Below are positions 6,455 to 61,551 of a DNA stretch of 64,000 nt, piece by piece. The position numbers and the translations under genes were made by a program. Each line of letters begins with the position of its first letter. Position 1 is the first letter of the stretch. The stretch is from Bacteroidales bacterium (GTDB lineage: Bacteria; Bacteroidota; Bacteroidia; Bacteroidales; UBA3663). The notes below the pieces were generated by a model. The model had not been told where the DNA came from and made no database searches. It saw only the letters and a list, made by a program, of their open reading frames with translations. Location: contig SFEH01000005.1 in the NCBI GenBank assembly GCA_004557315.1, positions 3,816 to 67,815 of the forward strand. Direction: 5' to 3'.

Positions 6455-7483
6455 ATGCGCGAGGTCATCTCTGTCATTATTCCTGCCTATAATTCTGAAA
6501 GTACGCTCGAATCCTGTGTTGCGAGTGTGCTCGATCAGACATATCGTGAGACGGAGATCGTCATAGTAGATGATGGATCGGTCGATGGCACACTGAAGAT
6601 GGGAAATCGATTGTCCTCTATTTATAATAATGTCAGAGTGGAGAGCATCAAGCACGCTGGCCCATCTGCTGCCCGCAATGCTGGGTTACGATTGGCGCGA
6701 GGAAGATACATTGCATTTGTTGATAGTGACGATAGGATCCATCCTGAATACCTTGCGACACTTCACTCTTTGATGTTGGAACACGGGGCTGATATCTCGG
6801 CAGTCACATATCAGATGGTGGCCGATAACAAGCATTCTGCTTCAAACACGCTTTCTGCTTCAAATAAGCCTTCTGCCTACAAGCAGCTTTGTGCGAATGA
6901 TTCGAAGGCAGATGTCAGGGTTTATTCGTCGGCAGAGGCTGTTGCAGACTTGCTTTATCAGAAGCATCTTGACTCTTCACAGTGCTGCAAGCTGTTTAGA
7001 CGGAAGCTTATTGAGGGACACTATTTCCCTGAAGATTGCCGAGTATATGAGGACTTGCTCTTCGTCTATCAAGCGTTCTGTAGGAGCGAGAAAATTGTTT
7101 GGACTGACAAACAGATGTACTACTATCACAAGACAGCCGATGGACAGATGGATAGCGTTTCGCCTTGCGTCACTGATGCCTTCGAGGTCATGGAGCGTAT
7201 CCGAAAGGACTTGTCAAGCCGCTACCCTACTCTATCTCATGCCATCGACAATCGCACAATCAGCGTGTCGTTCAATATCCTTAAGCTGATGGCTGTTTCA
7301 CATGAAACACGTCACGACGAGGGCATCGAACATCGTTGCTGGGACAATATTCGCTCATTGCGTTTTGCAAATTTCTTTGATCCAAACGTGAGGATTAAAA
7401 ACAAGGTTGGTGTCCTCCTCTCCCTTTTCGGATGTCGCTTCACAATGTCGGTTTTCTCGATAGTTGCCTGTTCTCGCAGATGA
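6455..7483 (+). CDS. Family 2 glycosyltransferase
   Basis: VISVIIPAYNSESTLESCVASVLDQTY..EIVIVDDGSVDGT and the FVDSDD DxD motif. Confidence 0.88.
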   Translation: MREVISVIIPAYNSESTLESCVASVLDQTYRETEIVIVDDGSVDGTLKMGNRLSSIYNNVRVESIKHAGPSAARNAGLRLARGRYIAFVDSDDRIHPEYLATLHSLMLEHGADISAVTYQMVADNKHSASNTLSASNKPSAYKQLCANDSKADVRVYSSAEAVADLLYQKHLDSSQCCKLFRRKLIEGHYFPEDCRVYEDLLFVYQAFCRSEKIVWTDKQMYYYHKTADGQMDSVSPCVTDAFEVMERIRKDLSSRYPTLSHAIDNRTISVSFNILKLMAVSHETRHDEGIEHRCWDNIRSLRFANFFDPNVRIKNKVGVLLSLFGCRFTMSVFSIVACSRR

Positions 7484-7728
7484 GCAGAAGCGAGACAATT
7501 ATTTCGATTACTATCATTGCTGCAGCTACGATATGAGGTGGATAGATAAGTCCGACACAAAGGGATGACAATCGGGATTACGACAGACAGCACTATGTAT
7601 GATTTGTTTCATCGTGCAGTCGAGTTTCAGTTCTTTTAAGTGTTCCGTAATTTTTGATTTGTGAAATATTTCTCCTATAATTGGTGCCTGTTTCACGTGG
7701 AACAATGATATATCCCTCTATATATTCA

Positions 7729-23300: not shown

Positions 23301-23380
23301 CCATTCGTCACAGAAATTCGCCATTCGTCACAAAAAACGGCCTTTTGTCACAGATTTAATGTCATCCATCACAGAAATTT
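23301..23380 (+). promoter_or_regulatory. Four direct repeats with 20-bp phasing (ccattcGTCACAGAAA-like), candidate activator binding array
   Basis: ccattcgtcacagaaa (23301), ccattcgtcacaaaaa (23321), ccttttgtcacagatt (23341), tccatcacagaaa (23365). A fifth GTCACAAAAA lies at 23500-23509. Confidence 0.6.
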
Positions 23381-23436
23381 GGAACATTGAAAAATAACCA
23401 TCAACTTTGCATCGTCAAACATAAAATGACAAAACA

Positions 23437-23469
23437 TCGAATAGGAGAATCTTATTCGGAATAGGAGAA
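23437..23469 (+). repeat. Two copies of GAATAGGAGAA spaced exactly 20 bp in the leader of the 23521 gene
   Basis: tcgaataggagaa (23437-23449) and tcggaataggagaa (23456-23469). cgaata...tattcg is also a short palindrome. Confidence 0.8.
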
Positions 23470-23520
23470 AAATTATTATTATATTAACAACTGACTTCGG
23501 TCACAAAAACATTATTAATT

Positions 23521-23904
23521 ATGAAAAAGTATTTTATGATGATGGTTGCAACAATGATGATGACAACAGTAAGCGCTAACGCAAAGGTTGGGAATGTGGA
23601 GAAAAGCGATATGCCTGCCAGTTGCGAAATGAATATGGCATCGCTCGCTCGCACGCTCGGTCTTGACGACTCACAGACAAAGGCTCTTGAAGCCGCAAGT
23701 ACCGAGCTGAGTGCAAGCTTGAATGGCGAGGTGGTCTATGATGATTCAACCCGCATGCTTCTCACCCTCACACAGGCTGTAAACCGTAATCTCAAAGTGG
23801 CTCACCGCGTGCTTAATACCAAGCAATACCATAAGTACCAGACAATTATCAACAGCACGCTCGTGAACAAGGGTCTCGACGATGAGTATTACAACGCAAA
23901 GTAA
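23521..23904 (+). CDS. Hypothetical small secreted protein
   Basis: Met-rich signal peptide MKKYFMMMVATMMMTTVSANA followed by a helical-looking 105 aa. No family recognised. Confidence 0.65.
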   Translation: MKKYFMMMVATMMMTTVSANAKVGNVEKSDMPASCEMNMASLARTLGLDDSQTKALEAASTELSASLNGEVVYDDSTRMLLTLTQAVNRNLKVAHRVLNTKQYHKYQTIINSTLVNKGLDDEYYNAK

Positions 23905-27481: not shown

Positions 27482-27527
27482 TATCGTCAAAAACGATTTT
27501 TTTCATATCGCCAGAAATTTATTGATA

Positions 27528-28853
27528 ATGGAAATCAAAACTCGACAAGGCATCAACGATGCACGCCAGCTTGGTTATGGCAAGTTTGCTATCCTTGGTA
27601 TTCAGCATTTGTTCGCAATGTTTGGCGCAACGATCCTCGTTCCCGCATTGACAGGTCTTCCAGTATCCACGACTCTGCTTTTCGCGGGTTTGGGCACATT
27701 AGTCTTCCACGCTATTTCTAAAGGTATTGTTCCAGCTTTCCTTGGTTCCAGCTTTGCCTTCATCGGTGGCTATCTGTCGGTCAAGCAGATGGGCATGGAG
27801 CTTGGCATGAGCGAGACTCTTGCCTTGGGCTATGCTTGCCTGGGTGTATGCTGTGCAGGTCTGTGCTACTTCGTCATGGCGGCATTGATCAAATGGTTCG
27901 GTTCGAAGAGAGTCCTCACGTTCTTTCCTCCTGTGGTGACTGGCCCTATGGTCATTGCCATCGGTCTTACGCTCTCGGGCTCTGCCATCACCAACTGTAC
28001 GAGCAACTGGCTGCTTGCCATCGTTGCCATTATAGGAGTGATAGTCAGTAGTATATGGGGTAGGGGCATTGTCAAGATCATCCCTATTCTTCTTGGCGTA
28101 GTCGTCTCTTATGTCTTGGCAGCAGTCATGGGTGAAGTCGATTTCAGCAGTGTCTCGGATGCTGCGTGGTTTGGCTTGCCTTTCAGCCGCGAAACCAGTG
28201 TGCTTGCCGTTTTCGACAATCTTGACAGCACTCTTCTCGTGAGCAGCATCATCGCTATTGTACCTATTGCCTTTGCCACTATAATGGAGCATATTGGCGA
28301 TATGTGCGCCATCTCATCGACCGTAGGCAAGGACTTCCTTGACAAGCCGGGACTTCATCGCACCCTGGTGGGCGATGGTCTTGCCACTTCACTTGCAAGC
28401 CTCTTTGGAGCACCAGCCAATACTACATACGGAGAGAATACAGGAGTCCTGAACCTCACCAAGGTTTTCGATCCTGCTGTCATACGTCTGGCAGCCTGCT
28501 TGAGCATAGTGCTCAGCTTCTGTCCGAAGTTCGCATGTCTCATCGGACTCATGCCAGCAGCCACTATCGGTGGAGTGAGTCTCATCCTCTATGGAATGAT
28601 CTCGGCTGTGGGTGTCCGCAACCTCGTGGAGTCGGCTGTCGATTTCTCAAATTCGCGCAATGTCTTTGTTGCAGCCCTCATCCTTGTGCTCGCTATAGGT
28701 GTGAAGTACGGAGCAGGCGACAGTGTTGCCATCGGCAGCATCCATCTCTCGGGTCTCGCCATAGCAGCTATCGTTGGCATCGTGCTCAATGCTATCCTTC
28801 CTGACAAGCTTGGCATGAAAGTCAAGAGTTTCCATGGAAAGGAGAAGAATTAA
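27528..28853 (+). CDS. uraA: NCS2 family uracil/xanthine permease
   Basis: LGIQHLFAMFGATILVP N-terminal signature; 12-14 TM segments; NTTYGENTGV motif. Confidence 0.88.
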   Translation: MEIKTRQGINDARQLGYGKFAILGIQHLFAMFGATILVPALTGLPVSTTLLFAGLGTLVFHAISKGIVPAFLGSSFAFIGGYLSVKQMGMELGMSETLALGYACLGVCCAGLCYFVMAALIKWFGSKRVLTFFPPVVTGPMVIAIGLTLSGSAITNCTSNWLLAIVAIIGVIVSSIWGRGIVKIIPILLGVVVSYVLAAVMGEVDFSSVSDAAWFGLPFSRETSVLAVFDNLDSTLLVSSIIAIVPIAFATIMEHIGDMCAISSTVGKDFLDKPGLHRTLVGDGLATSLASLFGAPANTTYGENTGVLNLTKVFDPAVIRLAACLSIVLSFCPKFACLIGLMPAATIGGVSLILYGMISAVGVRNLVESAVDFSNSRNVFVAALILVLAIGVKYGAGDSVAIGSIHLSGLAIAAIVGIVLNAILPDKLGMKVKSFHGKEKN

Positions 28854-28922
28854 GCAAGGCTATTGCCTTTTTCAATTATGTACATAATCAACATTTTTAT
28901 ATTCAAACAAATCTTTTTTTTT

Positions 28923-29651
28923 ATGAAGAAACTATTTCTTTTGAGCATTATGCTCGTATCTGCTTTTGTTGCAAATGCACAGAATCTCCAGGTTCACTAC
29001 GACTTCGGACGTGCAATCTATTCAGATGAAGAAGCTACTCGTCAGCGTGTTACATTGACATTCGAGCAGTTCAAGGCCGACAAGCTCGGTTCTTGGTTCT
29101 GGTTCATCGATCTCGATATGTATCACGATGGCATGAAGGGCGCATATACAGAGATCTCTCGTGAGTTTACTGCCAAGAACCTCACCGACAATCTCTCACT
29201 TGCTGCACACGTTGAGTATGATGGAGGTATGACTACCTTCAAGCCTGCTGGTGGCACACGTTTCCAGAATGCTGCCCTCGTTGGTCCTGCCCTCAATGGT
29301 CACAGTGCAGATTATTCAAAGACTTGGTCGATCCAGGCTATGTATAAGCAGTTCTTCAAGGGTGCAGGTGGCGATGCCTATGCTTCATTCCAGCTCACGG
29401 GTGTCTGGGGCATCAACTTCGCTGGAGGCAAGGGAACATTCTCTGGCTTCATCGATTTCTGGCGTGCTGAAACGGCCAATCACCATGGTCAGCTTCAGAT
29501 TATCTCTGAGCCACAGCTCTGGTACAATGTCAACAGTCATCTCTCGCTCGGTGGTGAGGTTGAGATCAGCAACAACTTCATCATTCCTGAGTGCGAAACT
29601 GACAAGACATTCTATGTCAACCCAACTTTGGGCGTTAAGTACGTATTCTAA
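28923..29651 (+). CDS. Small outer-membrane beta-barrel, DUF5020/Tsx-like (family recalled from memory)
   Basis: Signal peptide MKKLFLLSIMLVSAFVANAQ. Alternating beta-strand pattern, aromatic-rich, ends in ...LGVKYVF. Sandwiched between two nucleobase permeases. Confidence 0.7.
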   Translation: MKKLFLLSIMLVSAFVANAQNLQVHYDFGRAIYSDEEATRQRVTLTFEQFKADKLGSWFWFIDLDMYHDGMKGAYTEISREFTAKNLTDNLSLAAHVEYDGGMTTFKPAGGTRFQNAALVGPALNGHSADYSKTWSIQAMYKQFFKGAGGDAYASFQLTGVWGINFAGGKGTFSGFIDFWRAETANHHGQLQIISEPQLWYNVNSHLSLGGEVEISNNFIIPECETDKTFYVNPTLGVKYVF

Positions 29652-29683
29652 TCATTGATAATCAATAGAAAAAGGTTGATACC

Positions 29684-30973
29684 ATGTTGCAGAAATTATT
29701 CGGGTACGACCCACGAACCATGACACTTCAGAAGGAGGTTATGGGAGGAATCACCACTTTCCTCACAATGGCTTATATCCTCGCTGTCAATCCAAGCATC
29801 CTTGGCGATGCTGGCATGGACAGTGGAGCAGTTTTCACCGCAACCGTCGTTTCATCGATCGTTGCCACACTTGTGATGGCCATCTATGCCAAGCTGCCAT
29901 TCTCATTGGCACCAGGCATGGGACTGAATGCCTTCTTTGCCTACACCATTGTGCTCACAATGGGCTACACATGGCAGTTTGCATTGACTGCTGTCCTTAT
30001 CGAAGGTCTCATCTTTATCCTCTTGACCCTTACAGGTTTGCGCCAAAGGATAGTCGATTGTATGCCATTGCTTCTGCGTCGTTCCATTTCTCCTGGTATC
30101 GGCCTTTTCATTGCCTTCATCGGTCTCAAGAATGCAGGCATCGTCGCAGACAATGCCTCTACACTTGTTTCTCTTGGCAATCTTCATGACCCAGCAGTGC
30201 TGTTGGCGTGCTTCGGCATTATGCTCAGTGCTGTTCTCTTGGTGCGCAATGTCACAGGAGCCTTGCTTATTGGCATTATTGTCACAGCCCTTGTCGGCAT
30301 TCCTTTAGGTATAACCAATTTATCATCGGTAGTCGATGTGCCACCAAGTCTTGCACCTATCTTCTGCCAGTTTGAGTGGACGAGCCTTTTGAGCATTGAT
30401 ATGCTGGTATGCGTGTTTACCTTCCTCTTCATCGATATGTTCGATACTATAGGTACACTCATTGGTGTCAGCAACCGTGCTGGTATGGTCGATGATCAGG
30501 GCAATATCCCTCGTCTCAAACAGGCATTTATGGCAGATGCCCTTGGAACGGCTGTTGGAGCGATACTTGGAACATCGACAGTCACAACCTATGTTGAGAG
30601 TGCTTCGGGTGTCAATGTCGGCGGTCGCAGTGGCCTCACCTCATTTACTACGGTCATCTGCTTCGTCCTTGCCCTGTTCCTCGCTCCATTGTTCCTCTCT
30701 ATCCCTGCACAGGCCACAGCTCCTGCATTGATATTGGTGGGCGTGATGATGATGCACGACATCCGCAAGATCAATTTCCAGGATTATATCACAGCCATTC
30801 CATGCTTTGTCTGCATCGCCTTCATGCCACTCACATATTCAATCAGCGATGGTATTCTCATGGGTCTTATCTCATGGGTTCTTATCCATCTCTTCTGTGG
30901 TAAGGCCAAGGAACTCAATGTGGGCATGATTATCCTAGCAGGATTGTTCATTCTCAAATACGCGTTCCTTTGA
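29684..30973 (+). CDS. NCS2/AzgA family purine (adenine/guanine/hypoxanthine) permease
   Basis: EVMGGITTFLTMAYILAVNPSILG N-terminal signature; 429 aa polytopic. Confidence 0.88.
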   Translation: MLQKLFGYDPRTMTLQKEVMGGITTFLTMAYILAVNPSILGDAGMDSGAVFTATVVSSIVATLVMAIYAKLPFSLAPGMGLNAFFAYTIVLTMGYTWQFALTAVLIEGLIFILLTLTGLRQRIVDCMPLLLRRSISPGIGLFIAFIGLKNAGIVADNASTLVSLGNLHDPAVLLACFGIMLSAVLLVRNVTGALLIGIIVTALVGIPLGITNLSSVVDVPPSLAPIFCQFEWTSLLSIDMLVCVFTFLFIDMFDTIGTLIGVSNRAGMVDDQGNIPRLKQAFMADALGTAVGAILGTSTVTTYVESASGVNVGGRSGLTSFTTVICFVLALFLAPLFLSIPAQATAPALILVGVMMMHDIRKINFQDYITAIPCFVCIAFMPLTYSISDGILMGLISWVLIHLFCGKAKELNVGMIILAGLFILKYAFL

Positions 30974-31015: not shown

Positions 31016-33217
31016 TTACATTCTTGCCTTGATTTCGTTTCCTGCACCAGTGCCGCGATACTTGTTCTTGGTTGTGTTGAACTTATATCTCACTGTGAGC
31101 GAGACGGTCTGTGGGTCATAGATCGAACGCTCTACGCCATTGATGTGAGTCTGGCTCATGACATAGTTTCCGAGGTCAATGCGAACATTGTGATGAGCCT
31201 TTCCGAAGATGTCGTTGACGGCGAGACGCACCGAGAGGGCATCGTTTTCGAGCCATGATTTCTGGATGGCGCACGAGAGATTCCAATAGCAGTTGGCCAC
31301 TTCGGCATTTCCCCAATGGAAATCCGACAAAAACTCCGAGTTGAGTTCAAACTGCCAAGCCCCGAAGCCGTCGTCGCGTCGTGAAGGCAAGCGCCATGCG
31401 TTGTAGGCATTGACGATATACATAGGCCTGTTGTACTTCACCGTACGCTTGCCGCTCGTCTCGCGTGGGTCATCAAGGTTGAAGCTGAGCCACTGCTTCT
31501 GCAAGCCCACTGTATAGCTTGGAGTCCAGTGTCCCCAGGTGTTGGTGACATTGACAAAGGTGCCGAGGCTGTGGATAGGCTTGTCGAAATTCACCCAGTC
31601 GAACATCACTGTTCCGTCTTCACCGTAAGGGTGCGTCCAGTCGTAGATGCCGTTCTGCTGGTTCTGGTAGTTGACCGACATCGAAAGGAAGCGCCAGCGC
31701 ATGTTGATGGCAGCCTGATTGTTGATTTCGTTCTTCAGCTTCGGATTGCCTGTCGAGAGCGTGTAGCGGTTGTTGTACTCGATGTTGCTTCTCAGTAAGC
31801 GATAGTTCGGACGACGGGTCTTGACCGAATACGAGAGCGAAGCCTGCACCTCTTTGATCTGTGTGCCGAAGCTCACGGTAGGGTAGAGGTGGTCTTGTCC
31901 ACGGTTGATGTTCTGCGATGCGTCAAAGAGATTCTTGAACTCGAAATCGACGTGCTCATATCTCAAGCCGAGGTTGAGCATTCCATAGGGAGTCATAGTG
32001 CCATATTCGACAAAGACTGCATAGGTGTTCTCGTTGACTTTCGACTTGTCGTCGGCAATCTCCTTCTGGTCGATGGTGTATTCGTTGTCGCGTTTCACTA
32101 TATCGACTTCCGCACCAGCCTGCAGCTTGCCTTTGCCCAACGGATAGGAGAATACCACCTTTCCGGCATAGAGATCATTGCTCGACGTTCCCTTTGAATC
32201 GACTGTCCGATTGCCTGTCTTCGCCTTTTCTGTTGTCATGGCATGGTTCTCGTCATCGGTGTGATAATAATCGATGTTGAGGTTCATCTCCATCTTGCCT
32301 ATCTGTCCCTGATAGTAGGCATTGGTTGACCAGCTGTCAACGCCATCTTCCATAGTCAGAGTGTGCGACGAGAGCTGTTCGATCAGAGTGCGCGTACGGC
32401 TATATATATCGGCATCCATCTGATATGAAGTGCGTCCGTGCAGATTGTCATTGCGCTCGACCCTGAATCCTGCCGAATGGTTGTCGGCAATCTGCCAGTC
32501 GGCACCGAGGCTGTATTGTAAGCCTTTGTAGTGCTGGCCGAGGTCGGTCTTGCCGATCTGCTCGATATTAGCCTTGCTGAATGTGCTTTGGTTGAAGTCA
32601 GTCTTGTAATGCTCAAGACGGTGGTCGTTCAATGTCAAGCCGCCGAACAGTTCTACGCTCTTCTGTCGATAGTTGAGGTTGAGTGTGCCGTTGAGGCGGT
32701 TGTCACCGAAGCGCAATCCGTAGTAGTCGTTGGCATCAAGGCTGCCGCCAAGACCCTTTCCGCGACGTTTCACAGTCTTGATCCTCACCACGGCATTGAC
32801 CTGGGCATCATATTGAGCTCCAGGAGTGTTGATCACTTCCACCTCCTTGATTTCCTGACTCGAAAGACGCTGGAGTTCGCTGATGTCATTGACCTTCCTT
32901 CCATTGATATAATATATAGGAGAGCCCTTTCCAATCACCTCAATACTGCCATTTCGACGCATGAGCCCGGGCATACGTGCAAGAGCATCGGCTGCCGAGC
33001 CTGCGTTAGCGAGCGGAGTGCCCACCAGTCGGGTCACGAGCACGTCGCCATTCATCTTTGTCTTCTCCACTCTGGTCACCACCTCCACATTGTCGAGAGC
33101 CTGAGCCACCTTGGTCATGCTCTGTGTTGTGTCTTTTACTACTTTCAGCTTGCCATCCTGTGCAGCTGCTGTTGCAGCACTCGCAAGCATCATCATTCCA
33201 AAAATCAGCTTTTTCAT
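31016..33217 (-). CDS. Plug-containing outer-membrane beta-barrel protein (TonB-dependent-receptor-like, OMP_b-brl_3 type), paralog 1
   Basis: Signal peptide. Plug-like LARMPGLMRRNGSIEVIGKGSPIYYINGRKV...IKEVEVINTPGAQYDAQVNAVVRIKT. C-terminus KYRGTGAGNEIKARM. Paralogous to 58387-60534. Confidence 0.85.
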   Translation of the reverse strand: MKKLIFGMMMLASAATAAAQDGKLKVVKDTTQSMTKVAQALDNVEVVTRVEKTKMNGDVLVTRLVGTPLANAGSAADALARMPGLMRRNGSIEVIGKGSPIYYINGRKVNDISELQRLSSQEIKEVEVINTPGAQYDAQVNAVVRIKTVKRRGKGLGGSLDANDYYGLRFGDNRLNGTLNLNYRQKSVELFGGLTLNDHRLEHYKTDFNQSTFSKANIEQIGKTDLGQHYKGLQYSLGADWQIADNHSAGFRVERNDNLHGRTSYQMDADIYSRTRTLIEQLSSHTLTMEDGVDSWSTNAYYQGQIGKMEMNLNIDYYHTDDENHAMTTEKAKTGNRTVDSKGTSSNDLYAGKVVFSYPLGKGKLQAGAEVDIVKRDNEYTIDQKEIADDKSKVNENTYAVFVEYGTMTPYGMLNLGLRYEHVDFEFKNLFDASQNINRGQDHLYPTVSFGTQIKEVQASLSYSVKTRRPNYRLLRSNIEYNNRYTLSTGNPKLKNEINNQAAINMRWRFLSMSVNYQNQQNGIYDWTHPYGEDGTVMFDWVNFDKPIHSLGTFVNVTNTWGHWTPSYTVGLQKQWLSFNLDDPRETSGKRTVKYNRPMYIVNAYNAWRLPSRRDDGFGAWQFELNSEFLSDFHWGNAEVANCYWNLSCAIQKSWLENDALSVRLAVNDIFGKAHHNVRIDLGNYVMSQTHINGVERSIYDPQTVSLTVRYKFNTTKNKYRGTGAGNEIKARM

Positions 33218-33281
33218 TTTTCTCTTTGTTATTTATTATTGTTAATTTGTTTTCTCTAGCCCATATCGGTTTTGTCTGCTG

Positions 33282-33289
33282 CAAAGTTA
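33282..33289 (-). promoter_or_regulatory. -7 box TAACTTTG (minus strand) for the OM barrel gene
   Basis: Reverse complement of caaagtta. The same tgcaaagttat...tacataa string recurs at the GH26 promoter (52075-52090). Confidence 0.5.
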
Positions 33290-33426
33290 TTATACATAAC
33301 AAAATTATGCAATACTGAGTGACAGACAACCTTCTTTTAGGTACCGAATCCAAGGTTTAGGGATGTTTGTGGTCTTTGTAGGGACGAATAACAATAGAAA
33401 ATCTTGCAAAACTCAATATGTCTGCT

Positions 33427-33434
33427 TACCTTTG
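33427..33434 (+). promoter_or_regulatory. -7 box TACCTTTG for the LytTR gene
   Basis: TAnnTTTG match 19 nt upstream of the ATG at 33453. Confidence 0.55.
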
Positions 33435-33452
33435 CGCATCAATTAATGGTCT

Positions 33453-34382
33453 ATGAAGCAAATCCTTTATTCTCCTGTGTATGGCAGCATTGGTTCGATG
33501 ATTATCCTTGCCTTGCTCCAGCCTTTCGGCATTGACCAACTCGGATCCCAGCGCATACCATTCATCCTTGGTGAGTGCGCTTGTGTCTTTGTGTGCCTGT
33601 TCCTGTCGGAATGCTTTTTCCTATGGGTGTGTCCACGCCTCAGTTCAACAGGCAATGCCAAAAGGAAAGAGTCATCGAGCATCTGGCGTTTAGCCGTAGC
33701 CCTTGCACCTTCCTGCATCATCAATACGTGTCTGGTATCAGCATCTTTGCTGTGTTTCTGCGGCTGGTTTTATTTCGACGATATCTTCAATGGTTGGATC
33801 GGTCCAGAAGGTTTCACGCTTCGACCTTATCTCAATATGACTGCTCAGGTGATGTTTGTTGGTTTTTTTATCTATATCTGGGCAATCTACAGAGCGAGTA
33901 ATGTACAACTAAAGGATGAACTCAGTGAGCTACGTGCGCTCAACAAGCTGCTTGAAGAGCGTCAGGAGGCGGTGGCAACAATGAATGAAGAAAAACAGGA
34001 AGAACCTTGCCCCACAGCCGTTTGCCGCATCGAGGGCAATTACCATAACGACATTCTCGAGATTGATCCTCAGAACATTGTCTATGTCGAGTCAATGTCC
34101 AACTATGCCGACATCTGCTATATGCAGGAAGGCACGATGGAGCATAAGACAATGCGCATCACTCTCAAGCAGCTTCGCGAATCACTTTCGGAAGTCGAAT
34201 GCCTGATGTCGTGCCACCGAGCCTTCATCGTCAACCTCAATTTCGTGGTCTCAATCTCTCCGCGAGTTTCAGGTGGCTACCAGCTCGATGTCTTTGGCTG
34301 CGACAAGCAGATTCCTGTGTCGCGCACTTACATTGATGAGATTAAACAGCGAATGAAAAAAGAAGTAAAAAACAATAAATGA
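33453..34382 (+). CDS. Membrane-anchored LytTR-domain DNA-binding protein, paralog 1
   Basis: About four N-terminal TM segments, a coiled-coil linker (LKDELSELRALNKLLEERQ), and a C-terminal LytTR domain (IVYVESMSNYADICY...CHRAFIVNLNFV...IPVSRTY). No receiver domain. Confidence 0.85.
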   Translation: MKQILYSPVYGSIGSMIILALLQPFGIDQLGSQRIPFILGECACVFVCLFLSECFFLWVCPRLSSTGNAKRKESSSIWRLAVALAPSCIINTCLVSASLLCFCGWFYFDDIFNGWIGPEGFTLRPYLNMTAQVMFVGFFIYIWAIYRASNVQLKDELSELRALNKLLEERQEAVATMNEEKQEEPCPTAVCRIEGNYHNDILEIDPQNIVYVESMSNYADICYMQEGTMEHKTMRITLKQLRESLSEVECLMSCHRAFIVNLNFVVSISPRVSGGYQLDVFGCDKQIPVSRTYIDEIKQRMKKEVKNNK

Positions 34383-34390
34383 GAATAATT

Positions 34391-35185
34391 ATGGCAGAAG
34401 AAACCAAGCTTGTGGCAGTTGTCATTCCGATTTATAAATCGCACTTGTCTGATCAGGACAGAATCTCCCTAGACCAGACCTATAAGGTTCTTGCCCGATA
34501 CCCAATGATAGTGGTACATCCTGAAGGCTTGGATCTGAGCGAATTTCGACGCGACTATCCTGCCTTGCAGTACCAGTCGTTCGACAAGTCCTACTTCAGC
34601 AGTATTGTCGGCTACAACAAGCTGATGCTCGCTGAGGAGTTCTATTTGGCTTTTTCCGACTATCAATACATTCTGATCGACCAGCTCGATGTGTTTATCT
34701 TCAAGGACGAGCTTGAACAGTGGTGTCTCAAAGGCTACGACTATATTGGTGCCCCATGGATTCAGAATAAGATCGGCAGATTGCCGGTCGTCAGGCATTT
34801 CTCAAAGCTCATCGCTTATACTAAGCGACTTTTTGGCAAGAAGAGCAAGTATTACCGTTATGGCAAGGTCGGCAACGGAGGGCTGTCGCTTCGTAAGGTT
34901 CAGAGCCATATCAACGTGATCAGGACTCAGCCGGCACAGGTGCGCCTGTATGCCGAAATCAAAAACCGCCAGCATCTCTACAACGAAGATACGTTCTGGG
35001 CTATGGAGCCTATCGGATTCAAGTATCCAAGCGCCCAGGAGGCAATGCTCTTCTCCTACAACAAATACCCCGAGCAGAGCTACAAGCTCACAAAAGGCGC
35101 AACTCCCTTTGGCTGCCATGGATGGACGAAGCCCAAATACCGAAAGTTCTGGTGCACAAAGGGAGAAGTGCCAACAATGCCATGA
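34391..35185 (+). CDS. DUF5672-like protein (putative glycosyltransferase-like; family recalled from memory)
   Basis: VAVVIPIYKSHLS...YDYIGAPW. The upstream in-frame ATG at 34379 overlaps the LytTR stop (ATGA), so translational coupling is possible. Confidence 0.7.
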   Translation: MAEETKLVAVVIPIYKSHLSDQDRISLDQTYKVLARYPMIVVHPEGLDLSEFRRDYPALQYQSFDKSYFSSIVGYNKLMLAEEFYLAFSDYQYILIDQLDVFIFKDELEQWCLKGYDYIGAPWIQNKIGRLPVVRHFSKLIAYTKRLFGKKSKYYRYGKVGNGGLSLRKVQSHINVIRTQPAQVRLYAEIKNRQHLYNEDTFWAMEPIGFKYPSAQEAMLFSYNKYPEQSYKLTKGATPFGCHGWTKPKYRKFWCTKGEVPTMP

Positions 35186-35309
35186 GGTGTTAAGGTGTTA
35201 AGGCGCTGCGCTTGTTAAGATGTGAAGGTGTTCATTGCCTTTAGAAGAGGCTGTCTGCGCTGTCAAAACAACACCTTAACACCTTCACATCTTCACATCT
35301 TCACACCTT
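35186..35309. repeat. Octamer-armed palindromic element E1, wedged between two convergent stop codons
   Basis: Left arm ggtgttaaggtgttaaggcgctgcgcttgttaagatgtgaaggtgtt. Right arm aacaccttaacaccttcacatcttcacatcttcacacctt. Bounded by TGA at 35183-35185 and the complement TGA at 35310-35312. Confidence 0.9.
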
Positions 35310-37028
35310 TCACATCTCCACGTGGAACCAATCCACATCAACCCATCCGCCAGTCTTCTTGGTTGCATAGTTGAAGATAGCGAACTTACTGCCCATGAAG
35401 TGACGGCGGTAGTCGAAGATCATCTTGATGTCGCGTCCGATGTTCTTCCAGTTGGTGCCGTCGGTGCTGTAGGCAAACGAAGCGAGGTCGCGTCCGTCGT
35501 TGAAGTCAGCATGCAGCCTGAGATAGATGAGCTGCTGGGGCTTCTTGGTGTCAGGAGCCTTGGTCTTCTTTAGGTTGAGTGCAACCTCCTCAATCACTGT
35601 TTCATCGACTTTCTCCACCACCTTATTGTCGTTGAGCACCACATTCTCTTCGGTGAGCTGCAGATAGAGCTTGTTGCCACGCTTCACTACACGGAGCACG
35701 CCACTGTCGCCATTGTATGCAGCCAGACCGCAACGGTCGCCATCTTTCATGTTGGCAACATCGATGCAGACACTGCCTGTGCTCTGAGGTCCGCCAATGC
35801 GCTGAGTGATGGTGTTTGGAGCGACATTGATGTTATCGACTACGCGGGCTGTCTTAAGGCGCAAATATCCTGGGCGGTCAAGCAGACTCCATGCTTCGTC
35901 GATAGGGTTGTGGTTCCATTGCCAGTATAGCTTCAGTCCCTTGTCCTCATGATAGCCCGATTTGCGCATACGGTTGAGTGCCTGAGTTGGGAAATCAAAC
36001 TCGTCGCTGTTGATGATGCCGCGAAGCGAAGGATGCTGCTTTGTGAGGTCGTTAGGAATATGGTAGTTTTTTGGATTCAGGCAAGCCTCGGTGTCGCTTG
36101 GATTCACTCCTTCGTTCAGCTCACCGCACATTGGCCAGCCATCGACCCATGTTACTCGCATCGCACAAGGCACACGGCCTATGCCGCCACGATCCTGGAA
36201 GATGAGTGCCCACCAGTTAAGATCGCTCTGGTCATCACCTACCAGACAGCCTTGGCCTACACCACCATACACCTCGAACGGAGTTTCGAGAATGACGTGC
36301 TTCTCATATGGGCCAGTGATATTGTCGGCACGATAGCAGACCTCACGGCGAACGCGTCCAGGCACATCCCATTTCATCGAGATCATGCAGAGGTAATACT
36401 TGCCATTGTGCTTGATTACGCTGCTTCCTTCGAGCAATGCGCCTCGTTCCTCTGGATCGTCGGCACTATCGACAATCTTCTTGTTCACGCCACCTTCCTT
36501 TGGCTCAAAGTTGTTGTCGAGTTCAACCAGTGTGCAGCCTCCCGAACCAGTAAACATATAGATCTTGCCGTCTTCGTCAAAGAAGAGCGAGCCGTCGTGC
36601 ATGTGAGGCGGACGAGCCACGAGCGTCCAAGGTCCTTCAGCCCTGTCGGCCGAGAAGACAAAGCCTTTGCCAGGAGCGCCATTGGCAGTAAACCACACAT
36701 AGAACTTGCCCATGTGATAGCGGATGCTCGAAGCCCACTGACCTTGTCCATAGACAGTCTTGTTGTCGGTGAGGTTGTAGCGGTCGCCATCGTCGATGCG
36801 GTCAAACACATAGCTGATCGTCTCCCAGTTGACCATGTCCTTCGAACGCATGATAGGTCCTCCAGGCATGAGGTGCATTGTCGTACTGATCATGTAATAG
36901 GTATCGGCAACCTTGCACACGCTGATGTCAGGAACATCGGCATTAATAACTGGATTGCGGAAAGTCTCTTGCGCCTTGATGCTCATTGCAAATACCACAA
37001 CAAGGCATAACATTAAAATTTTTTTCAT
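35310..37028 (-). CDS. GH43 glycoside hydrolase with C-terminal ConA-like beta-sandwich domain
   Basis: Signal peptide. NPVINADVPDISVCKVADTYYMISTTMHLMPGGPIMRSKDMVNWE, GQWASSIRYHMGKFYVWF, LLEGSSVIKHNGKYYL. 572 aa. Confidence 0.85.
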   Translation of the reverse strand: MKKILMLCLVVVFAMSIKAQETFRNPVINADVPDISVCKVADTYYMISTTMHLMPGGPIMRSKDMVNWETISYVFDRIDDGDRYNLTDNKTVYGQGQWASSIRYHMGKFYVWFTANGAPGKGFVFSADRAEGPWTLVARPPHMHDGSLFFDEDGKIYMFTGSGGCTLVELDNNFEPKEGGVNKKIVDSADDPEERGALLEGSSVIKHNGKYYLCMISMKWDVPGRVRREVCYRADNITGPYEKHVILETPFEVYGGVGQGCLVGDDQSDLNWWALIFQDRGGIGRVPCAMRVTWVDGWPMCGELNEGVNPSDTEACLNPKNYHIPNDLTKQHPSLRGIINSDEFDFPTQALNRMRKSGYHEDKGLKLYWQWNHNPIDEAWSLLDRPGYLRLKTARVVDNINVAPNTITQRIGGPQSTGSVCIDVANMKDGDRCGLAAYNGDSGVLRVVKRGNKLYLQLTEENVVLNDNKVVEKVDETVIEEVALNLKKTKAPDTKKPQQLIYLRLHADFNDGRDLASFAYSTDGTNWKNIGRDIKMIFDYRRHFMGSKFAIFNYATKKTGGWVDVDWFHVEM

Positions 37029-57104: not shown

Positions 57105-58064
57105 TTAAGATTTCAGGGATTCTTTGCTATTGCGTTGGGAGCTTGCACATATAGCCTCTTTGATTGCAGCTCTGTTGGGGCGTGACAAAGGAATCTTTTT
57201 GTCTAAGCTGAACAGATTGATGAAGAAGCGGTTGTTGGCTCCTTCAAGCGACTCGACATACATGAGATTGACGAGGAAGGCACGATGGCACTGAACAATA
57301 AATGAATAATCACGCAGTTCTTCCTTCAGCTGTTTTATCGTGGAGCGCAAAGTGCGACTGCTGATTTGTTCGTTATCTATAAAATAGACATTGCTGTAAT
57401 TGCCTACCGATTCGACATAGATGATCTTGCTTGGGATGATGGTGAAGTCTTGAGACGTATTGTCGGTATGCAGAATGACAGGGCATTCTTCTTTATCCTG
57501 TTTGCCATCATGTTTATCATCATCTTCATCTGCTTCTTTTTCAACTTCTTTACCAACTTCCTCTCCATGTTCATTTTCGTCATTTTCATGCTTGCTCTCC
57601 TCTTTCCATCCATTGGCTGCATTCTGGCGTTCGCGAATCATCTTGTTGATGTCCTTGACCTCGTTTAGTTCCTTACGAATATTCCTTATCCAAATGTATA
57701 GCAGTTGAAAGGCGAAGATGATGAGCGAGACAATAAAGATGGTAGGCATGGTAATGAAGAAATAGGCTATTCCGCATACCACACCATAGGTGACACCAAA
57801 TGCAAAGGCACTAATGCACCATACAATGCTAAGGTCTCGGGCACTGTCTCTCGTCGTTCCGCTGTGGCGGAGTAGGTTGAAGCAGACAGCGATGGAGGCA
57901 GACATCAGGAATACGCCTGCCATACAACCAATAATATTCAGGTTGGAGCAGAATTCTCGTTCCATGCTCAACTTCACTTCAAAGGGCTTGAGGATCACCA
58001 GAACAAAAATCGAGCTTACAAACATGAATAGCGTGAGTTTAAGAATTCTTTTAATCTTACACAT
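57105..58064 (-). CDS. Membrane-anchored LytTR-domain DNA-binding protein, paralog 2
   Basis: Four TM segments, an acidic low-complexity linker (HENDENEHGEEVGKEVEKEADEDDDKHDGKQDKEE), and a LytTR domain (IIYVESVGNYSNVYF...CHRAFLVNLMYV...IPLSRPN). Confidence 0.85.
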   Translation of the reverse strand: MCKIKRILKLTLFMFVSSIFVLVILKPFEVKLSMEREFCSNLNIIGCMAGVFLMSASIAVCFNLLRHSGTTRDSARDLSIVWCISAFAFGVTYGVVCGIAYFFITMPTIFIVSLIIFAFQLLYIWIRNIRKELNEVKDINKMIRERQNAANGWKEESKHENDENEHGEEVGKEVEKEADEDDDKHDGKQDKEECPVILHTDNTSQDFTIIPSKIIYVESVGNYSNVYFIDNEQISSRTLRSTIKQLKEELRDYSFIVQCHRAFLVNLMYVESLEGANNRFFINLFSLDKKIPLSRPNRAAIKEAICASSQRNSKESLKS

Positions 58065-58096
58065 TGTAGTTTCGAGTTTTGAGATTTTTCATTTCG

Positions 58097-58104
58097 CAAA
58101 AATA
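58097..58104 (-). promoter_or_regulatory. -7 box TATTTTTG (minus strand) for LytTR paralog 2
   Basis: Reverse complement of caaaaata. Lies 33 nt upstream of the ATG at 58064. Confidence 0.5.
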
Positions 58105-58159
58105 ATGATAATTTCTGATATGTAGATAAATATGGGATAAAATGTATAGATTTGGGATG

Positions 58160-58284
58160 GAAAGATGTGAAGGTGTGAAGGTGTTAAGGCGCTGCGCTTG
58201 TGAAGATGTTCAATGTCTTCAGTAGTGTTTTGTCTTGTGTAGAGTCAATGAACACCTTAACATCTTCACACCTTCACATCTTTC
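58160..58284. repeat. Octamer-armed palindromic element E3 in the LytTR/OM-barrel divergent region
   Basis: gaaagatgtgaaggtgtgaag (58160-58180) is the exact reverse complement of cttcacaccttcacatctttc (58264-58284). The core at 58206-58274 matches 61475-61543 with 3 substitutions. Confidence 0.95.
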
Positions 58285-58340
58285 TGTCCCAAATTGGCTA
58301 ACGTCTATCCCAACCTATTGCCCGAATGAAAAGATTGCTA

Positions 58341-58348
58341 TACCTTTG
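58341..58348 (+). promoter_or_regulatory. -7 box TACCTTTG for OM barrel paralog 2
   Basis: TAnnTTTG match 39 nt upstream of the ATG at 58387. Confidence 0.55.
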
Positions 58349-58386
58349 CACCGCATACAATTACATTTTAAATTAATTATAAACAG

Positions 58387-60534
58387 ATGAGAAGAATAGG
58401 TTTTTTGTTTTTGCTCCATTCGCTGTGCTTTATGGCGGTCGATGGGCAAAACGTTAACTCGACTGATTCGACAGTCTTTCTTAATGAAGTTGAGGTGCAG
58501 TCATTTGTGCCAAAGACAAAGTTGCGTGGCGACGCGATCGTGACCAAGATTCAAGGCTCGGTGCTTGAGAAATCGGGCTCGCTGCACGAGATGCTGGGCA
58601 AGGTGCCAGGGATGATGATGGAGGGTGAAGAACTCAAGGTGATCGGCAAAGGTGTGCCTGTGTTCTATGTCAATGGCCGCAAGCTATATGACACAGAGGA
58701 ACTGAAGCGCATGAGAAGCGAGGAGATCATGGAGGTGGAGGTGATCAACAACCCCGGTGCGCAGTATGACGCGACGGTGAGCGCGGTGGTCAAGATCCGC
58801 ACCCGTCGCCCACAAGGCGAGGGCTTCGGCTTTAACCTGACAGCAGGACATAGCCAGGACTTGCGCCGAGCAGATTTTGCCGACCCCTCAGCAACGATCA
58901 ACTTCAACTATCGCAACAAGGGTTTGGATGTCTTTGGCATGGTCAATCACTGGAATTCGCACACATTACAGGAAGCCACTACCGATCAGCATATCTATGC
59001 CAACGTTGGCAATCAGGTCAATGACAACTGGCAGAAGGGAAAGATAGTTACAAGCACTGCTGGCTATGGAATGAATTATGCGCTGGGTGTCAATCAGGTG
59101 ATAAGCGAAAATCACAGCATGGGCGCACGTCTTCAGATCGACCATCTGTTGAACAACGAGAGTCCGCTGACTCTCGATCAGGATATCTTTAACAATGATG
59201 TCTTCTATAAATCGCTTTTCTCGGAAACTCACACTATCTACGATCATCCAATCGGCTATAATCTCAACTCATACTACAATGGCCGATGGGGAAAGATCGG
59301 CATCGACTGGAACTTCGATTGGGGCAAGAAAGGGGCTGAAGAAAAGATGGACAGCAAGAGCGACGATGTACATTCGCTGAGCGAGGCTTCGAGCAATCTG
59401 TTTGCAACGAAGCTCGTGGTGTCGTATCCTGTGTGGAAAGGAACGGTCAATGCAGGAACGGAAATGACATGGGTGAGGCGTGACATCGATTATGTTATCA
59501 ATCAGGACTATATCTCAGATTCTCATTCCAAGACTAATGAAGACAGTTATTCCGTGTTCGTTGAGTATCTTGCCAATTTCGACAAGTATGGAACGGCAAG
59601 GATTGGTGCTCGCTATGAATGTGTGAACTTTGATTATGTCAATCTTGCAGATGCTGCTGCCAATGTGCGCGACACTCGCCGAGGCATTTACCCATCGATA
59701 TCGTATTCGGTAGGGTTTGGCAGGGTGAATCTTTCGTTGAGCTACAACACCAAGACCGTCCGCCCAAACTTCTATCGTCTGACCGATGCCACTACCTATG
59801 TGAGTCACTCGATGCTGATGCAGGGCAACTCGCAGCTGCGCAATCAGATCAACCATGAGTTGGGGCTCAATGCCCGATGGAGCTGGATCATAGCTTCAGT
59901 CAGCTACACAAAAAACAACCACATGATGACACAATGGTCTTATCCATACATTGGAGAGCAGGTGCCTGTGGAGGAGGGTGTGCAGGTCGTGAGGGTGATC
60001 AACCTCGCCAAGCCTGTAAAGACTCTTGTCAGCTTCGTCAATGCTTCGCCCACTATAGGTATCTACTCTATGAATACAACGGTGGGTTGTCAGAAGCAGT
60101 TTTTCACTGTGGAAGTGGATGACCCTCGTGAGGCTTCGGGCAAACGAACCAAGTCGTATAACGACCCTGTGCTTTTCATCAATTCCAACAATACGTTGCG
60201 ACTGCCTCACAATTGGCAAGTGGAATGTAGCTTGAATGTCAATTCAAAGGGTAATCTGCAAAACTATCGACTGATGAGGTGGAATACAGGCTTGTCCGCT
60301 GCTATTCAGAAGACTCTGCTGCGCAACAAAGCTCTCACCTTGCGGCTTTCAGCCAATGACATTCTGTATCGCACGGGACAGGATATTCTGCTTGACAGCG
60401 GCGACAACGTGATGTATCAATGCAACCGATACTCGTCGCAACGCTTGGTGTTTTCAATTCGCTATGCATTCAATCAAACCAAGAGCAAGTATAAAGGTAC
60501 CGGAGCTGGTGGGGATGCGAAGAACAGAATGTAG
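58387..60534 (+). CDS. Plug-containing outer-membrane beta-barrel protein (TonB-dependent-receptor-like), paralog 2
   Basis: LGKVPGMMMEGEELKVIGKGVPVFYVNGRKL...IMEVEVINNPGAQYDATVSAVVKIRT. C-terminus KYKGTGAGGDAKNRM. Collinear with 31016-33217. Confidence 0.85.
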   Translation: MRRIGFLFLLHSLCFMAVDGQNVNSTDSTVFLNEVEVQSFVPKTKLRGDAIVTKIQGSVLEKSGSLHEMLGKVPGMMMEGEELKVIGKGVPVFYVNGRKLYDTEELKRMRSEEIMEVEVINNPGAQYDATVSAVVKIRTRRPQGEGFGFNLTAGHSQDLRRADFADPSATINFNYRNKGLDVFGMVNHWNSHTLQEATTDQHIYANVGNQVNDNWQKGKIVTSTAGYGMNYALGVNQVISENHSMGARLQIDHLLNNESPLTLDQDIFNNDVFYKSLFSETHTIYDHPIGYNLNSYYNGRWGKIGIDWNFDWGKKGAEEKMDSKSDDVHSLSEASSNLFATKLVVSYPVWKGTVNAGTEMTWVRRDIDYVINQDYISDSHSKTNEDSYSVFVEYLANFDKYGTARIGARYECVNFDYVNLADAAANVRDTRRGIYPSISYSVGFGRVNLSLSYNTKTVRPNFYRLTDATTYVSHSMLMQGNSQLRNQINHELGLNARWSWIIASVSYTKNNHMMTQWSYPYIGEQVPVEEGVQVVRVINLAKPVKTLVSFVNASPTIGIYSMNTTVGCQKQFFTVEVDDPREASGKRTKSYNDPVLFINSNNTLRLPHNWQVECSLNVNSKGNLQNYRLMRWNTGLSAAIQKTLLRNKALTLRLSANDILYRTGQDILLDSGDNVMYQCNRYSSQRLVFSIRYAFNQTKSKYKGTGAGGDAKNRM

Positions 60535-61054: not shown

Positions 61055-61432
61055 ATGTTTATAGTTATGAGATACCGTTTATTACTTACCAATACAGTGA
61101 ATGGAGAGGAAGCGGAAATCGTTGTCCCCTCGTATTTGCCACTCGAAGAGCTTAGCCATAAGATTAAGCTTGAACTTGACTTGCCATTATGCGATAACGG
61201 ATGGCATCGGTTCCAGTCGCTTGGAACTGTCTATGTTATCGACGAGCATCTTTTTGCCGAAACTGAATGGCTGACAAAGTGCAACCTCTATGTCGGCCGA
61301 TACCGCAGCAGCGAAAGAATACGTCTGAAGCACGTGTTCACAGGTATAGGTTCGGCTATTACTTATATTCAGGATGATGAGAATTTCTTCTATATCTTTA
61401 AGATCCGTGTCACTCTGGTGAAAAGGTGTTAA
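61055..61432 (+). CDS. Small protein resembling the pRiA4b ORF-3-like (PRiA4_ORF3) domain (from memory); alternative start 61067
   Basis: YRLLLTNTVNGEEAEIVVPSYLPLEELSHKIKLELDLPLCDNGWHRF... fits the family pattern (YxFKVxL...IWRRIxVP...LxxLHxxIQ...GWxxxHLHxF) only loosely. The last four codons and the stop lie inside element E4. Confidence 0.55.
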   Translation: MFIVMRYRLLLTNTVNGEEAEIVVPSYLPLEELSHKIKLELDLPLCDNGWHRFQSLGTVYVIDEHLFAETEWLTKCNLYVGRYRSSERIRLKHVFTGIGSAITYIQDDENFFYIFKIRVTLVKRC

Positions 61433-61549
61433 GGCGCTTCGCTTGTGAAGGTGTTAAGGTGTTAAGGTGTGAAGATGTTCAATGTCTTCAGTAGTCTGTT
61501 GACTTGTGTAGAGTCAATGAACACCTTAACATCTTCACACCTTAACAAC
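61420..61549. repeat. Octamer-armed palindromic element E4 between convergent genes
   Basis: aaaaggtgttaaggcgcttcgcttgtgaaggtgttaaggtgttaaggtgtgaag...aacaccttaacatcttcacaccttaac. Relative to E3 it carries a 24-nt octamer-repeat insertion in the left arm. Confidence 0.95.
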
Positions 61550-61551
61550 TA

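Follow-up and report, generated by a model that had tools for sequence, protein, structure and literature searches.

A predicted membrane LytTR regulator paired with a TonB-dependent-transporter-like barrel gene in gut and rumen Bacteroidales

A 64,000-nucleotide stretch of contig SFEH01000005.1 (assembly GCA_004557315.1) from a Bacteroidales bacterium of the UBA3663 lineage, called here the window, has a G+C content of 48% and holds two modules of the same kind. In each, a gene for a predicted membrane protein ending in a LytTR DNA-binding domain is transcribed divergently from a gene for an outer-membrane barrel resembling TonB-dependent transporters, and the window has no other LytTR or barrel genes. 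By its distribution, the pair is a conserved two-gene cassette of gut and rumen Bacteroidales, with phased direct repeats in the shared control region. We hold with moderate confidence that the LytTR protein would be a one-component, membrane-embedded activator of the neighboring transporter-like gene, and that it would often regulate itself as well.

Recurrence of the gene pair across genomes

Relatives of the module 1 regulator were sought in one genome per GTDB species, which yielded 553, and the best 80 loci were analyzed. The closest was found in a Bacteroidales metagenome-assembled genome (locus L001), with a regulator 94% identical to ours; those relatives that carry a name belong to gut and rumen Prevotellaceae and Bacteroidaceae, and Bacteroides cellulosilyticus DSM 14838 (L066) is one that has a module. 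In 56 of the 80 loci, a plug/barrel gene was no more than 1 kb away from the LytTR gene, divergently upstream in 43, co-directionally downstream in 11 and convergently in 2, and another 11 loci were only partly informative. In a stricter count the barrel was adjacent in 25 of 45 cases, against a background in which barrels made up 9 of the 569 genes two or more positions from the regulator (binomial P ~4e-26). The pairing is not due to chance, and adjacency is strongly enriched across Bacteroidales. The first-pass annotation, made from this DNA alone, had named co-occurrence across genomes as a way to check the pairing, and the check came out in its favor. Flanking genes vary between loci while the pair persists, in two gene orders. 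The barrels of the co-directional Bacteroides clade have diverged further and are still Plug/OMP_b-brl_3/TonB_dep_Rec proteins. Two loci that carry the module (L040 and L042) are labeled Lachnospiraceae and are probably mis-binned Bacteroidales contigs.

The pairwise identities of regulators and barrels correlate over 41 modules (Spearman 0.74; Mantel 0/999), a correlation of which part must reflect shared species history. Together with the adjacency, this supports a functional coupling of the two genes, as judged from sequence comparison. The barrel itself is monocistronic and has no conserved operon partner across loci; the sole recurrent gene downstream of it is the second LytTR paralog of a tandem module. 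Such tandem modules occur in L043 (2304-8924), L051 and L168 (2375-8969), and also in L035, L041, L055, L060 and L063, and the cassette appears to duplicate as a unit. In the tandem loci the second LytTR paralog is convergent with the barrel, and L043 and L168 have a second barrel too.

A reverse, barrel-centered set comprised 80 metagenome loci with barrels at 31 to 49% identity. A LytTR gene was present in 15 of the 80, and in all three of those with barrels at least 44% identical. Five further barrels (45 to 64% identity) came from long contigs: three are directly divergent with a regulator, for one the regulator ends a divergent four-gene operon, and for the last there is no regulator within 3.5 kb. 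A CarbopepD_reg domain appears only in barrel relatives of 39% identity or less. The LytTR link is therefore specific to a subfamily of barrels of about 715 to 745 amino acids that lack CarbopepD_reg; the relatives at or below 39% carry that domain and are mostly unlinked. Open reading frame (ORF) starts in the fetched loci came from a simple rule and were over-extended, making a split of the barrels by length unreliable, and the barrel-centered counts rest on other tests.

Module 2 of the window is a diverged paralogous copy, its regulator 26% and its barrel 37% identical to those of module 1. The first-pass annotation had reported a duplicate of the module 1 pairing at 57105-60534; a diverged LytTR and barrel copy does lie there, but the DUF5672-like gene that follows the regulator in module 1 has no counterpart in it.

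This DUF5672 gene was considered as a part of the module and rejected. No DUF5672 homologue occurs in the 80 related regulator loci, a 66%-identical ortholog has a GH43 gene directly after the regulator and no DUF5672, and a 93%-identical strain is the only one in which DUF5672 follows the regulator. There is likewise no conserved partner or small membrane-protein gene downstream of the regulator in the loci, where only barrels and DUF2141 genes recur. The gene is probably co-transcribed with LytTR 1 in this lineage; its distribution marks it as a lineage-specific passenger outside the conserved system, and its earlier description as a coupled gene is not supported. The ATGA overlap that had been reported between the two genes is present (aaATGAgaataattATGgca), but the start that it implies is doubtful because in the 93%-identical strain the second ATG, equivalent to window position 34391 and 9 nucleotides past the LytTR stop, is called as the start.

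Promoters and phased boxes in the shared control region

Promoters of Bacteroidetes follow a consensus of their own, with TTTG or TTGC at -33 and TAnnTTTG at -7. The same consensus is given in Table 3 of PMC6193735. Putative promoters of this type were located for both genes of module 1, and between them stands a candidate operator array of four direct repeats in the same orientation, phased at 20 to 21 bp (Table 1). The layout of the barrel-1 promoter was seen in about 34 orthologous intergenic regions, and most orthologous regions have TAnnTTTG at the place equivalent to the LytTR promoter. Aligned, the barrel side reads TGCAAAGtTA - 19 nucleotides - TGCAATAG - 3 nucleotides - GGGAYAnAYGG - about 10 nucleotides - GGGAYAtt, in which TGCAAAGtTA is the reverse complement of the TAnnTTTG -7 box and TGCAATAG that of the -33 TTGC. 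Module 2 has one box pair per promoter, each at the canonical distance of 37 nucleotides, which on the LytTR-2 side is that between the first box and the -7 box, and a REP-like (repetitive extragenic palindrome-like) element lies between the two pairs.

Table 1. Features of the two modules and of related sites (positions are those of the window; aa, amino acids; nt, nucleotides)
Feature	Position	Strand	Details
Barrel 1	31016..33217	-	733 aa, TonB-dependent-transporter-like; signal peptide, LDNVEVV motif, small plug, OMP_b-brl_3 barrel
Putative barrel-1 promoter	33282..33312	-	-7 TAACTTTG (33289 to 33282); -33 TTGC (33312 to 33309); 19-nt spacer
Module-1 candidate operator array	33319..33389	+	GTGACAGAC 33319, GGTACCGAA 33340, GGGATGTTT 33360, GGGACGAAT 33381
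Putative LytTR-1 promoter	33404..33434	+	-33 TTGC 33404-33407; 19-nt spacer; -7 TACCTTTG 33427-33434
LytTR 1	33453..34382	+	309 aa; four predicted transmembrane helices, QPFGID turn, GxFTL loop, LytTR domain 201-301
DUF5672 gene	34379..35185	+	E = 4.8e-52; likely start 34391; downstream of LytTR 1
LytTR 2	57105..58064	-	319 aa, paralog; four predicted transmembrane helices, acidic linker, LytTR domain
LytTR-2 promoter side	58097..58162	.	-7 TATTTTTG on - (58104 to 58097); boxes GGGATAAAA 58134 and GGGATGGAA 58154 on +
Barrel-2 promoter side	58282..58348	.	boxes GGGATAGAC 58311 to 58303 and GGGACAGAA 58290 to 58282 on -
Barrel-2 promoter		+	-33 TTGC 58318-58321; -7 TACCTTTG 58341-58348
Barrel 2	58387..60534	+	715 aa, paralog of barrel 1
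REP-like palindrome	58150..58294	.	40-nt arms, 93% complementary; 65-nt loop; between module-2 box pairs
Further REP-like copies	35186-35310; 61425-61550
Possible extra regulon site	23303..23904	+	four phased boxes, cores 23307, 23327, 23347, 23368 (CCATTCGTCACA type)
Promoter of the extra site		+	TTTG 23378-23381; CAACTTTG 23402-23409; last box at canonical distance from -7
ORF after the extra boxes	23521-23904	+	127 aa; hydrophobic, signal-peptide-like N-terminus (by eye)

The boxes and their spacing are far more frequent than shuffled sequence would give. Forty intergenic regions held 168 GGGAY/RTCCC boxes, compared with 28 +/- 5.6 in shuffles, and 57 same-strand pairs spaced at 20 to 22 bp, compared with 0.12 expected. 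The direct-repeat consensus is G[GT]GAY with a spacing of 20 to 21 bp, and the first box stands 36 to 37 nucleotides from the -7 box wherever both can be located. The exact pair GGGAY-N16-GGGAY occurs only twice in the window (33360-33385 and 58286-58311; 0.31 expected), once in the intergenic region of each module. Many relatives also have a mirror-image pair, CCATTCGTCAC - 10 nucleotides - CCATTTGTCCC, before the regulator's own promoter.

The boxes also persist where the gene order differs. In the co-directional Bacteroides clade, two or three CATTCGTCACA repeats, phased at 20 to 21 bp, occupy the spacer between LytTR and barrel; they belong to the same box family, seen from the opposite strand. 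Where another divergent gene has replaced the barrel, the promoter and boxes upstream of LytTR are kept, and in L025, L044 and L047 the stretch from the regulator to a downstream DUF2141 gene contains a box pair with the same orientation relative to its target. Among the barrel-centered loci, phased boxes stand upstream of the barrel in 7 of the 12 where LytTR adjoins and in 4 of the 58 where it does not (Fisher P = 1.6e-4). On this comparison, the putative boxes follow the regulator gene, and the barrel promoter when gene order changes.

The divergent gene that stands in place of the barrel encodes a protein of about 240 amino acids (L008 7073-7795, L006/L009 609-1334, L012 1927-2652, L013 3056-3745), with a weak DUF2271 match in L008, or is an ORF of about 70 amino acids in L026-L030 (~7360-7704). 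The DUF2141 genes, of about 139 amino acids, recur by regulators (L025 8829-9366, L044 710-1247, L047 8799-9337), and in Bacteroides (L065 11112-11525 and relatives) DUF2141 is third in a LytTR-barrel-DUF2141 row.

Known LytTR operators consist of 9- to 11-bp repeats with 11- to 13-bp spacers just upstream of -35 (PMC6193735). The geometry of the boxes is this classic LytTR layout, which by analogy makes them a candidate operator, and their position upstream of -33 would fit activation. No riboswitch was matched in Rfam in either barrel leader, the only match in the window being a tRNA.

Four further phased boxes with a promoter occur at 23303-23904, ahead of a short ORF for which there was no Pfam family and no homologue in the fetched loci. 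This site has no adjacent LytTR gene, its neighbors being QueF and an AraC-type regulator, and it may belong to the regulon and be controlled in trans. The REP-like elements form a family with 8-nucleotide units GTGAAGGT/GTTAAGGT; two of the copies lie between convergent genes, and one is inserted in the divergent promoter region of module 2.

Predicted structure of the regulator and the barrel

Pfam searches assigned OMP_b-brl_3, LytTR and DUF5672, the families proposed in the first-pass annotation. Its description of a LytTR protein with about four transmembrane (TM) helices and neither receiver nor partner kinase was borne out by Pfam, hydropathy, the structural model and a scan of the neighbors, and ORFs, Pfam, Foldseek and neighbors agreed with its divergent 733-amino-acid TonB-dependent-receptor-like barrel lacking a SusD partner.

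The LytTR domain occupies residues 201-301 of LytTR 1 (Pfam PF04397, E = 1.2e-13) and was equally clear in LytTR 2 (E = 1.3e-13). Profile searches gave no Response_reg match in LytTR 1; the BtsR/LytR response-regulator models of NCBIfam match only its C-terminal third, far below their cut-offs. No histidine kinase gene was found among the scanned neighbors of the modules. Both regulators have four hydrophobic segments by hydropathy. The AlphaFold model of LytTR 1 was built on an alignment of 22 sequences and has a mean predicted local distance difference test score (pLDDT) of 84.7. It shows three helices, at 2-21, 27-59 and 77-108, and a very long fourth one at 124-182, which is TM4 prolonged into the linker and is followed by a beta-rich domain. 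In a Foldseek search against the PDB, this domain matched the LytTR domains of AgrA, ComE and 3d6w, and the membrane part had no match.

The regulator fits a four-TM LytTR layout, with four TM helices, no periplasmic domain and a C-terminal LytTR domain. Its TM domain had no Pfam family even at E <= 10, and a search with it alone against 1.84 billion representative proteins returned only 20 relatives or clusters at E <= 0.001, most of them proteins of 290 to 320 amino acids that match at the N-terminal end. By the positive-inside rule, and since the helices are even in number, both termini of LytTR 1 would be cytoplasmic, which leaves predicted periplasmic loops of only about 10 and about 22 residues. 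The invariant residues of the membrane part, P24 and F25 of the QPFGID motif and G120, sit in the two predicted periplasmic turns, and a GxFTL loop is also on the predicted periplasmic side.

Barrel 1 matched OMP_b-brl_3 strongly (E = 1.7e-45); its Plug match was sub-threshold (E = 0.005, 17.7 bits, cut-off 23.9), and Plug is significant in relatives. The AlphaFold model (pLDDT 81.2) shows a disordered stretch (residues 1-50), a small plug-like domain (53-148) and then a large barrel, and it matches many TonB-dependent transporters along their whole length, among them Cir, PfeA, ChuA, PhuR and HasR, the first four over more than 700 columns (Foldseek E ~4e-19); these matches favor no substrate class. 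No solved structure was related to the barrel by sequence at E <= 1. Ahead of the plug, in the disordered N-terminus, stands a conserved LxEVxV motif, LDNVEVV in barrel 1, that resembles a TonB box and may be one. The signal peptide is followed by about 20 residues and this motif, and then by the plug. No STN or other signaling domain was matched by Pfam, nor does the model leave room for one in the N-terminus, and no CarbopepD_reg domain was found by Pfam in barrel 1. No SusD gene was present among the scanned neighbors. Judged by fold and motif, the protein is probably a plug-containing, TonB-dependent transporter.

The surroundings of the modules differ from genome to genome. In the window, module 1 adjoins two xanthine/uracil-family permease genes around a DUF5020 gene (27522-30973), one of the permeases being the convergent downstream neighbor of barrel 1; the stretch looks like a nucleobase uptake cluster and is not kept beside the module in other genomes. 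The nucleobase permeases and GH43 enzymes near the modules are a variable context that gives no lead to signal or substrate. In L164 (827-5699), the regulator is last in a divergent four-gene operon (GyrI-like/Cass2, two unknown proteins, LytTR) that faces the barrel, with BlaI-like and Peptidase_M56/TonB_C genes after the barrel, and MerR-GyrI-like and chloramphenicol acetyltransferase genes lie nearby in L167. These neighbors are weak hints of small-molecule or xenobiotic sensing.

Proposed mechanism, alternatives and known systems

In the mechanism that we favor, each module would be a self-contained cassette of regulator and target. The LytTR protein is predicted to stay in the inner membrane, with a cytoplasmic N-terminus, four TM helices, a long helix and a LytTR domain facing the cytoplasm, and it would probably act as a dimer or oligomer. 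We infer that it binds the direct repeats G[GT]GAY(R)AA, which are 20 to 21 bp apart and lie directly beside the -33 element of the divergent barrel promoter, and that bound protein would activate transcription of the barrel gene; in module 2 and in most relatives it would act on its own promoter too. The cue would most likely be sensed by the four-TM bundle, within the inner membrane or at its periplasmic face, and could be the transported compound or a linked state of the membrane or envelope. A wider scheme, which we put forward tentatively, has a set of paralogous four-TM LytTR sensors, each detecting a compound in the inner membrane, probably one that is lipophilic or membrane-active, and each switching on its own outer-membrane importer through the common phased-repeat operator. 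Small secreted proteins, namely DUF2141 proteins and the product of the 127-amino-acid ORF at 23521, would be further members of the regulon. Control of this kind may be distinct from hybrid two-component systems, pairs of extracytoplasmic function (ECF) sigma and anti-sigma factors, SusR and riboswitches.

Several observations weigh against the favored mechanism. In module 1 the LytTR-1 promoter lacks mirrored boxes, and the two boxes closest to the barrel -33 element are degenerate (GTGACA and GGTACC). The LytTR promoters of many relatives carry a box inside the -33 to -7 interval, where autorepression would be a better fit than activation. No barrel is nearby in 13 of the 80 regulator loci, with both flanks visible, and only about 12 of the 77 more distant barrels adjoin a LytTR gene. 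A TonB dependence of the barrel is suggested by its fold and a single motif. The loci are also related to each other, and the shuffle statistics and the mirror-tree correlation overstate their independence.

The box between -33 and -7 bears on a reading in which the regulator works chiefly as a repressor or autorepressor, or is held inactive by its membrane domain until proteolysis, like a LytTR regulatory system (LRS) fused into one protein and working by sequestration. In the relatives concerned, that box (GGGATAAA) lies 13 nucleotides upstream of the LytTR -7 element, inside the -33/-7 spacer, and LRS membrane proteins do inhibit their LytTR partners (PMC6193735). However, the boxes at the barrel promoter occupy an activator position upstream of -33, the TM domain of the comparable regulator HigX is needed for activity and not inhibitory (PMC13384398), and the neighbor scans found no protease gene linked to the module, so that we regard this reading as unlikely. 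The relatedness of the loci, which inflates the statistics, and the differences between their flanking genes would also suit an incidental or historical adjacency, such as co-inheritance in a variable genomic island, with repeats that serve another factor or have no regulatory role. We consider this very improbable: the pair is kept in two gene orders while all flanks change, the distance from box to promoter is fixed, boxes are enriched only where LytTR adjoins, and the exact phased pair is found in the window only at the two module regions. The conserved pairing, the conserved geometry of operator and promoter, and the folds are what the computations show.

The first-pass annotation had offered a trans-envelope sensing circuit or an import circuit as its hypothesis. 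The second part, a regulator controlling the barrel, is the best reading of the adjacency, the co-divergence and the shared promoter and operator. The first part would have the barrel report ligand occupancy across the periplasm to the regulator in the style of FecA-FecR or of SusC-like transducers and anti-sigma factors, with the regulator then switching on transcription. An outer-membrane plug-barrel is indeed conserved in its pairing with an inner-membrane regulator, and P24, F25 and G120, the TM-domain residues of highest conservation, are in turns predicted to face the periplasm. Yet the barrel has neither STN nor an N-terminal extension, its residues 1-50 comprising the signal peptide and a short disordered stretch, and the predicted regulator loops are too short to span the periplasm. 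Regulators of this family, with their boxes, are also paired with genes other than barrels, those for DUF2141 and for the 240- and 70-amino-acid products, and the scanned neighbors included no gene for an ECF sigma or anti-sigma factor. FecA/FecR-like signaling is improbable because of the missing signaling domain, the short loops and the non-barrel targets.

That nothing characterized in Bacteroidota corresponds to this arrangement, as claimed in the first-pass annotation, agrees with our literature searches, which, with incomplete coverage, found no report of a LytTR and outer-membrane barrel pairing or of this operator. This needs qualifying in two respects. Zou et al. 2018 (PMC6193735) had already noted Bacteroides LytTR regulators that have several TM segments, and the four-TM plus LytTR architecture is credited to the original LytTR survey in passages of PMC10269533 and PMC13384398. 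Moreover, a four-TM LytTR transmembrane transcription factor, HigX of Caulobacter crescentus, has been characterized (PMC13384398). HigX shares with the present regulator four N-terminal TM helices, the absence of a periplasmic domain and of a receiver, a linker and a C-terminal LytTR domain, and it acts from the membrane, as we propose here. Its targets are envelope and transport genes, and one HigX site is near a TonB-dependent receptor gene (PMC13384398). HigX comes from a different phylum, however, and its TM domain is likened to ours by layout; it recognizes an 8-bp inverted repeat that has no spacer, in contrast to direct repeats phased at 20 to 21 bp, and it is SOS-controlled with numerous scattered targets, whereas the regulator described here would have a dedicated neighboring target.

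The LRS of Streptococcus mutans (HdrRM/BrsRM) and the LRS-like operons of Bacteroides also link a receiver-less LytTR protein to a small multi-TM module and have direct repeats just upstream of -35/-33, implying autoregulation. Candidate own-promoter repeats of this type were found at the LytTR-2 promoter and in most relatives, the unmirrored LytTR-1 promoter standing apart. In the LRS-like systems of Bacteroides the LytTR proteins contain TM segments and the repeats are 11 bp long with spacers of 11 bp; the regulator is paired there with an NfeD/DUF2154 membrane protein and not with an outer-membrane barrel (PMC6193735). In LRS the membrane inhibitor is a separate gene of the operon, whereas here the membrane part is fused to the regulator, and the box sequences differ. 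Regulators of the AgrA/ComE/AlgR type have the same DNA-binding fold (3bs1, 4xqn, 4cbv) and, comparable to the candidate operator here, two or more direct repeats about two helical turns apart by the promoter, but they are soluble and carry a receiver phosphorylated by a partner kinase, neither of which was found in our regulator or its scanned neighbors. A membrane sensor and a DNA-binding domain in one polypeptide are also found in BcrR of Enterococcus faecalis and in CoxC, which control nearby genes that deal with the sensed compound, as is proposed here. BcrR has four TM helices as well, as cited in a passage of PMC13384398, but its helix-turn-helix domain and its ATP-binding cassette (ABC) exporter target differ from the LytTR domain and barrel target of our regulator. 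CoxC, an MHYT-LytTR protein (PMC11347149), has a six-TM MHYT gas-sensor domain, unlike the four-TM domain here, which has no Pfam family. FecA-FecR-FecI and the sets of SusC-like transducer, anti-sigma and ECF sigma factor likewise tie a plug-barrel gene to an inner-membrane regulator, with several paralogous sets per genome. They differ in that our modules have no signaling domain on the barrel, no sigma or anti-sigma factor and no SusD, and place the DNA-binding domain on the membrane protein itself. SusC/SusD loci differ in having a SusD-like gene and a CarbopepD_reg domain on the barrel. The components are familiar, and it is the dedicated cassette, its distribution and its operator that are new.

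Bacteroidota take in nutrients mainly through TonB-dependent transporters. The known controls over these proteins, namely hybrid two-component systems, ECF-sigma/anti-sigma pairs, SusR and riboswitches, are central to substrate choice by gut and rumen species. A conserved cassette built on another type of regulator would extend this list of transporter control systems and would give an entry point to an uncharacterized barrel subfamily (PF14905 without CarbopepD_reg). It would also provide, beside HigX, a second independent case for how a transcription factor fixed in the membrane works. With the operator defined as G[GT]GAY boxes phased at 20 to 21 bp and 36 to 37 nucleotides from -7, the regulon should be computationally predictable, and once the signal is identified the promoters could be used as inducible parts. 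The shared promoter region with its evenly spaced boxes suggests a way of switching on an uptake channel that has not been described.

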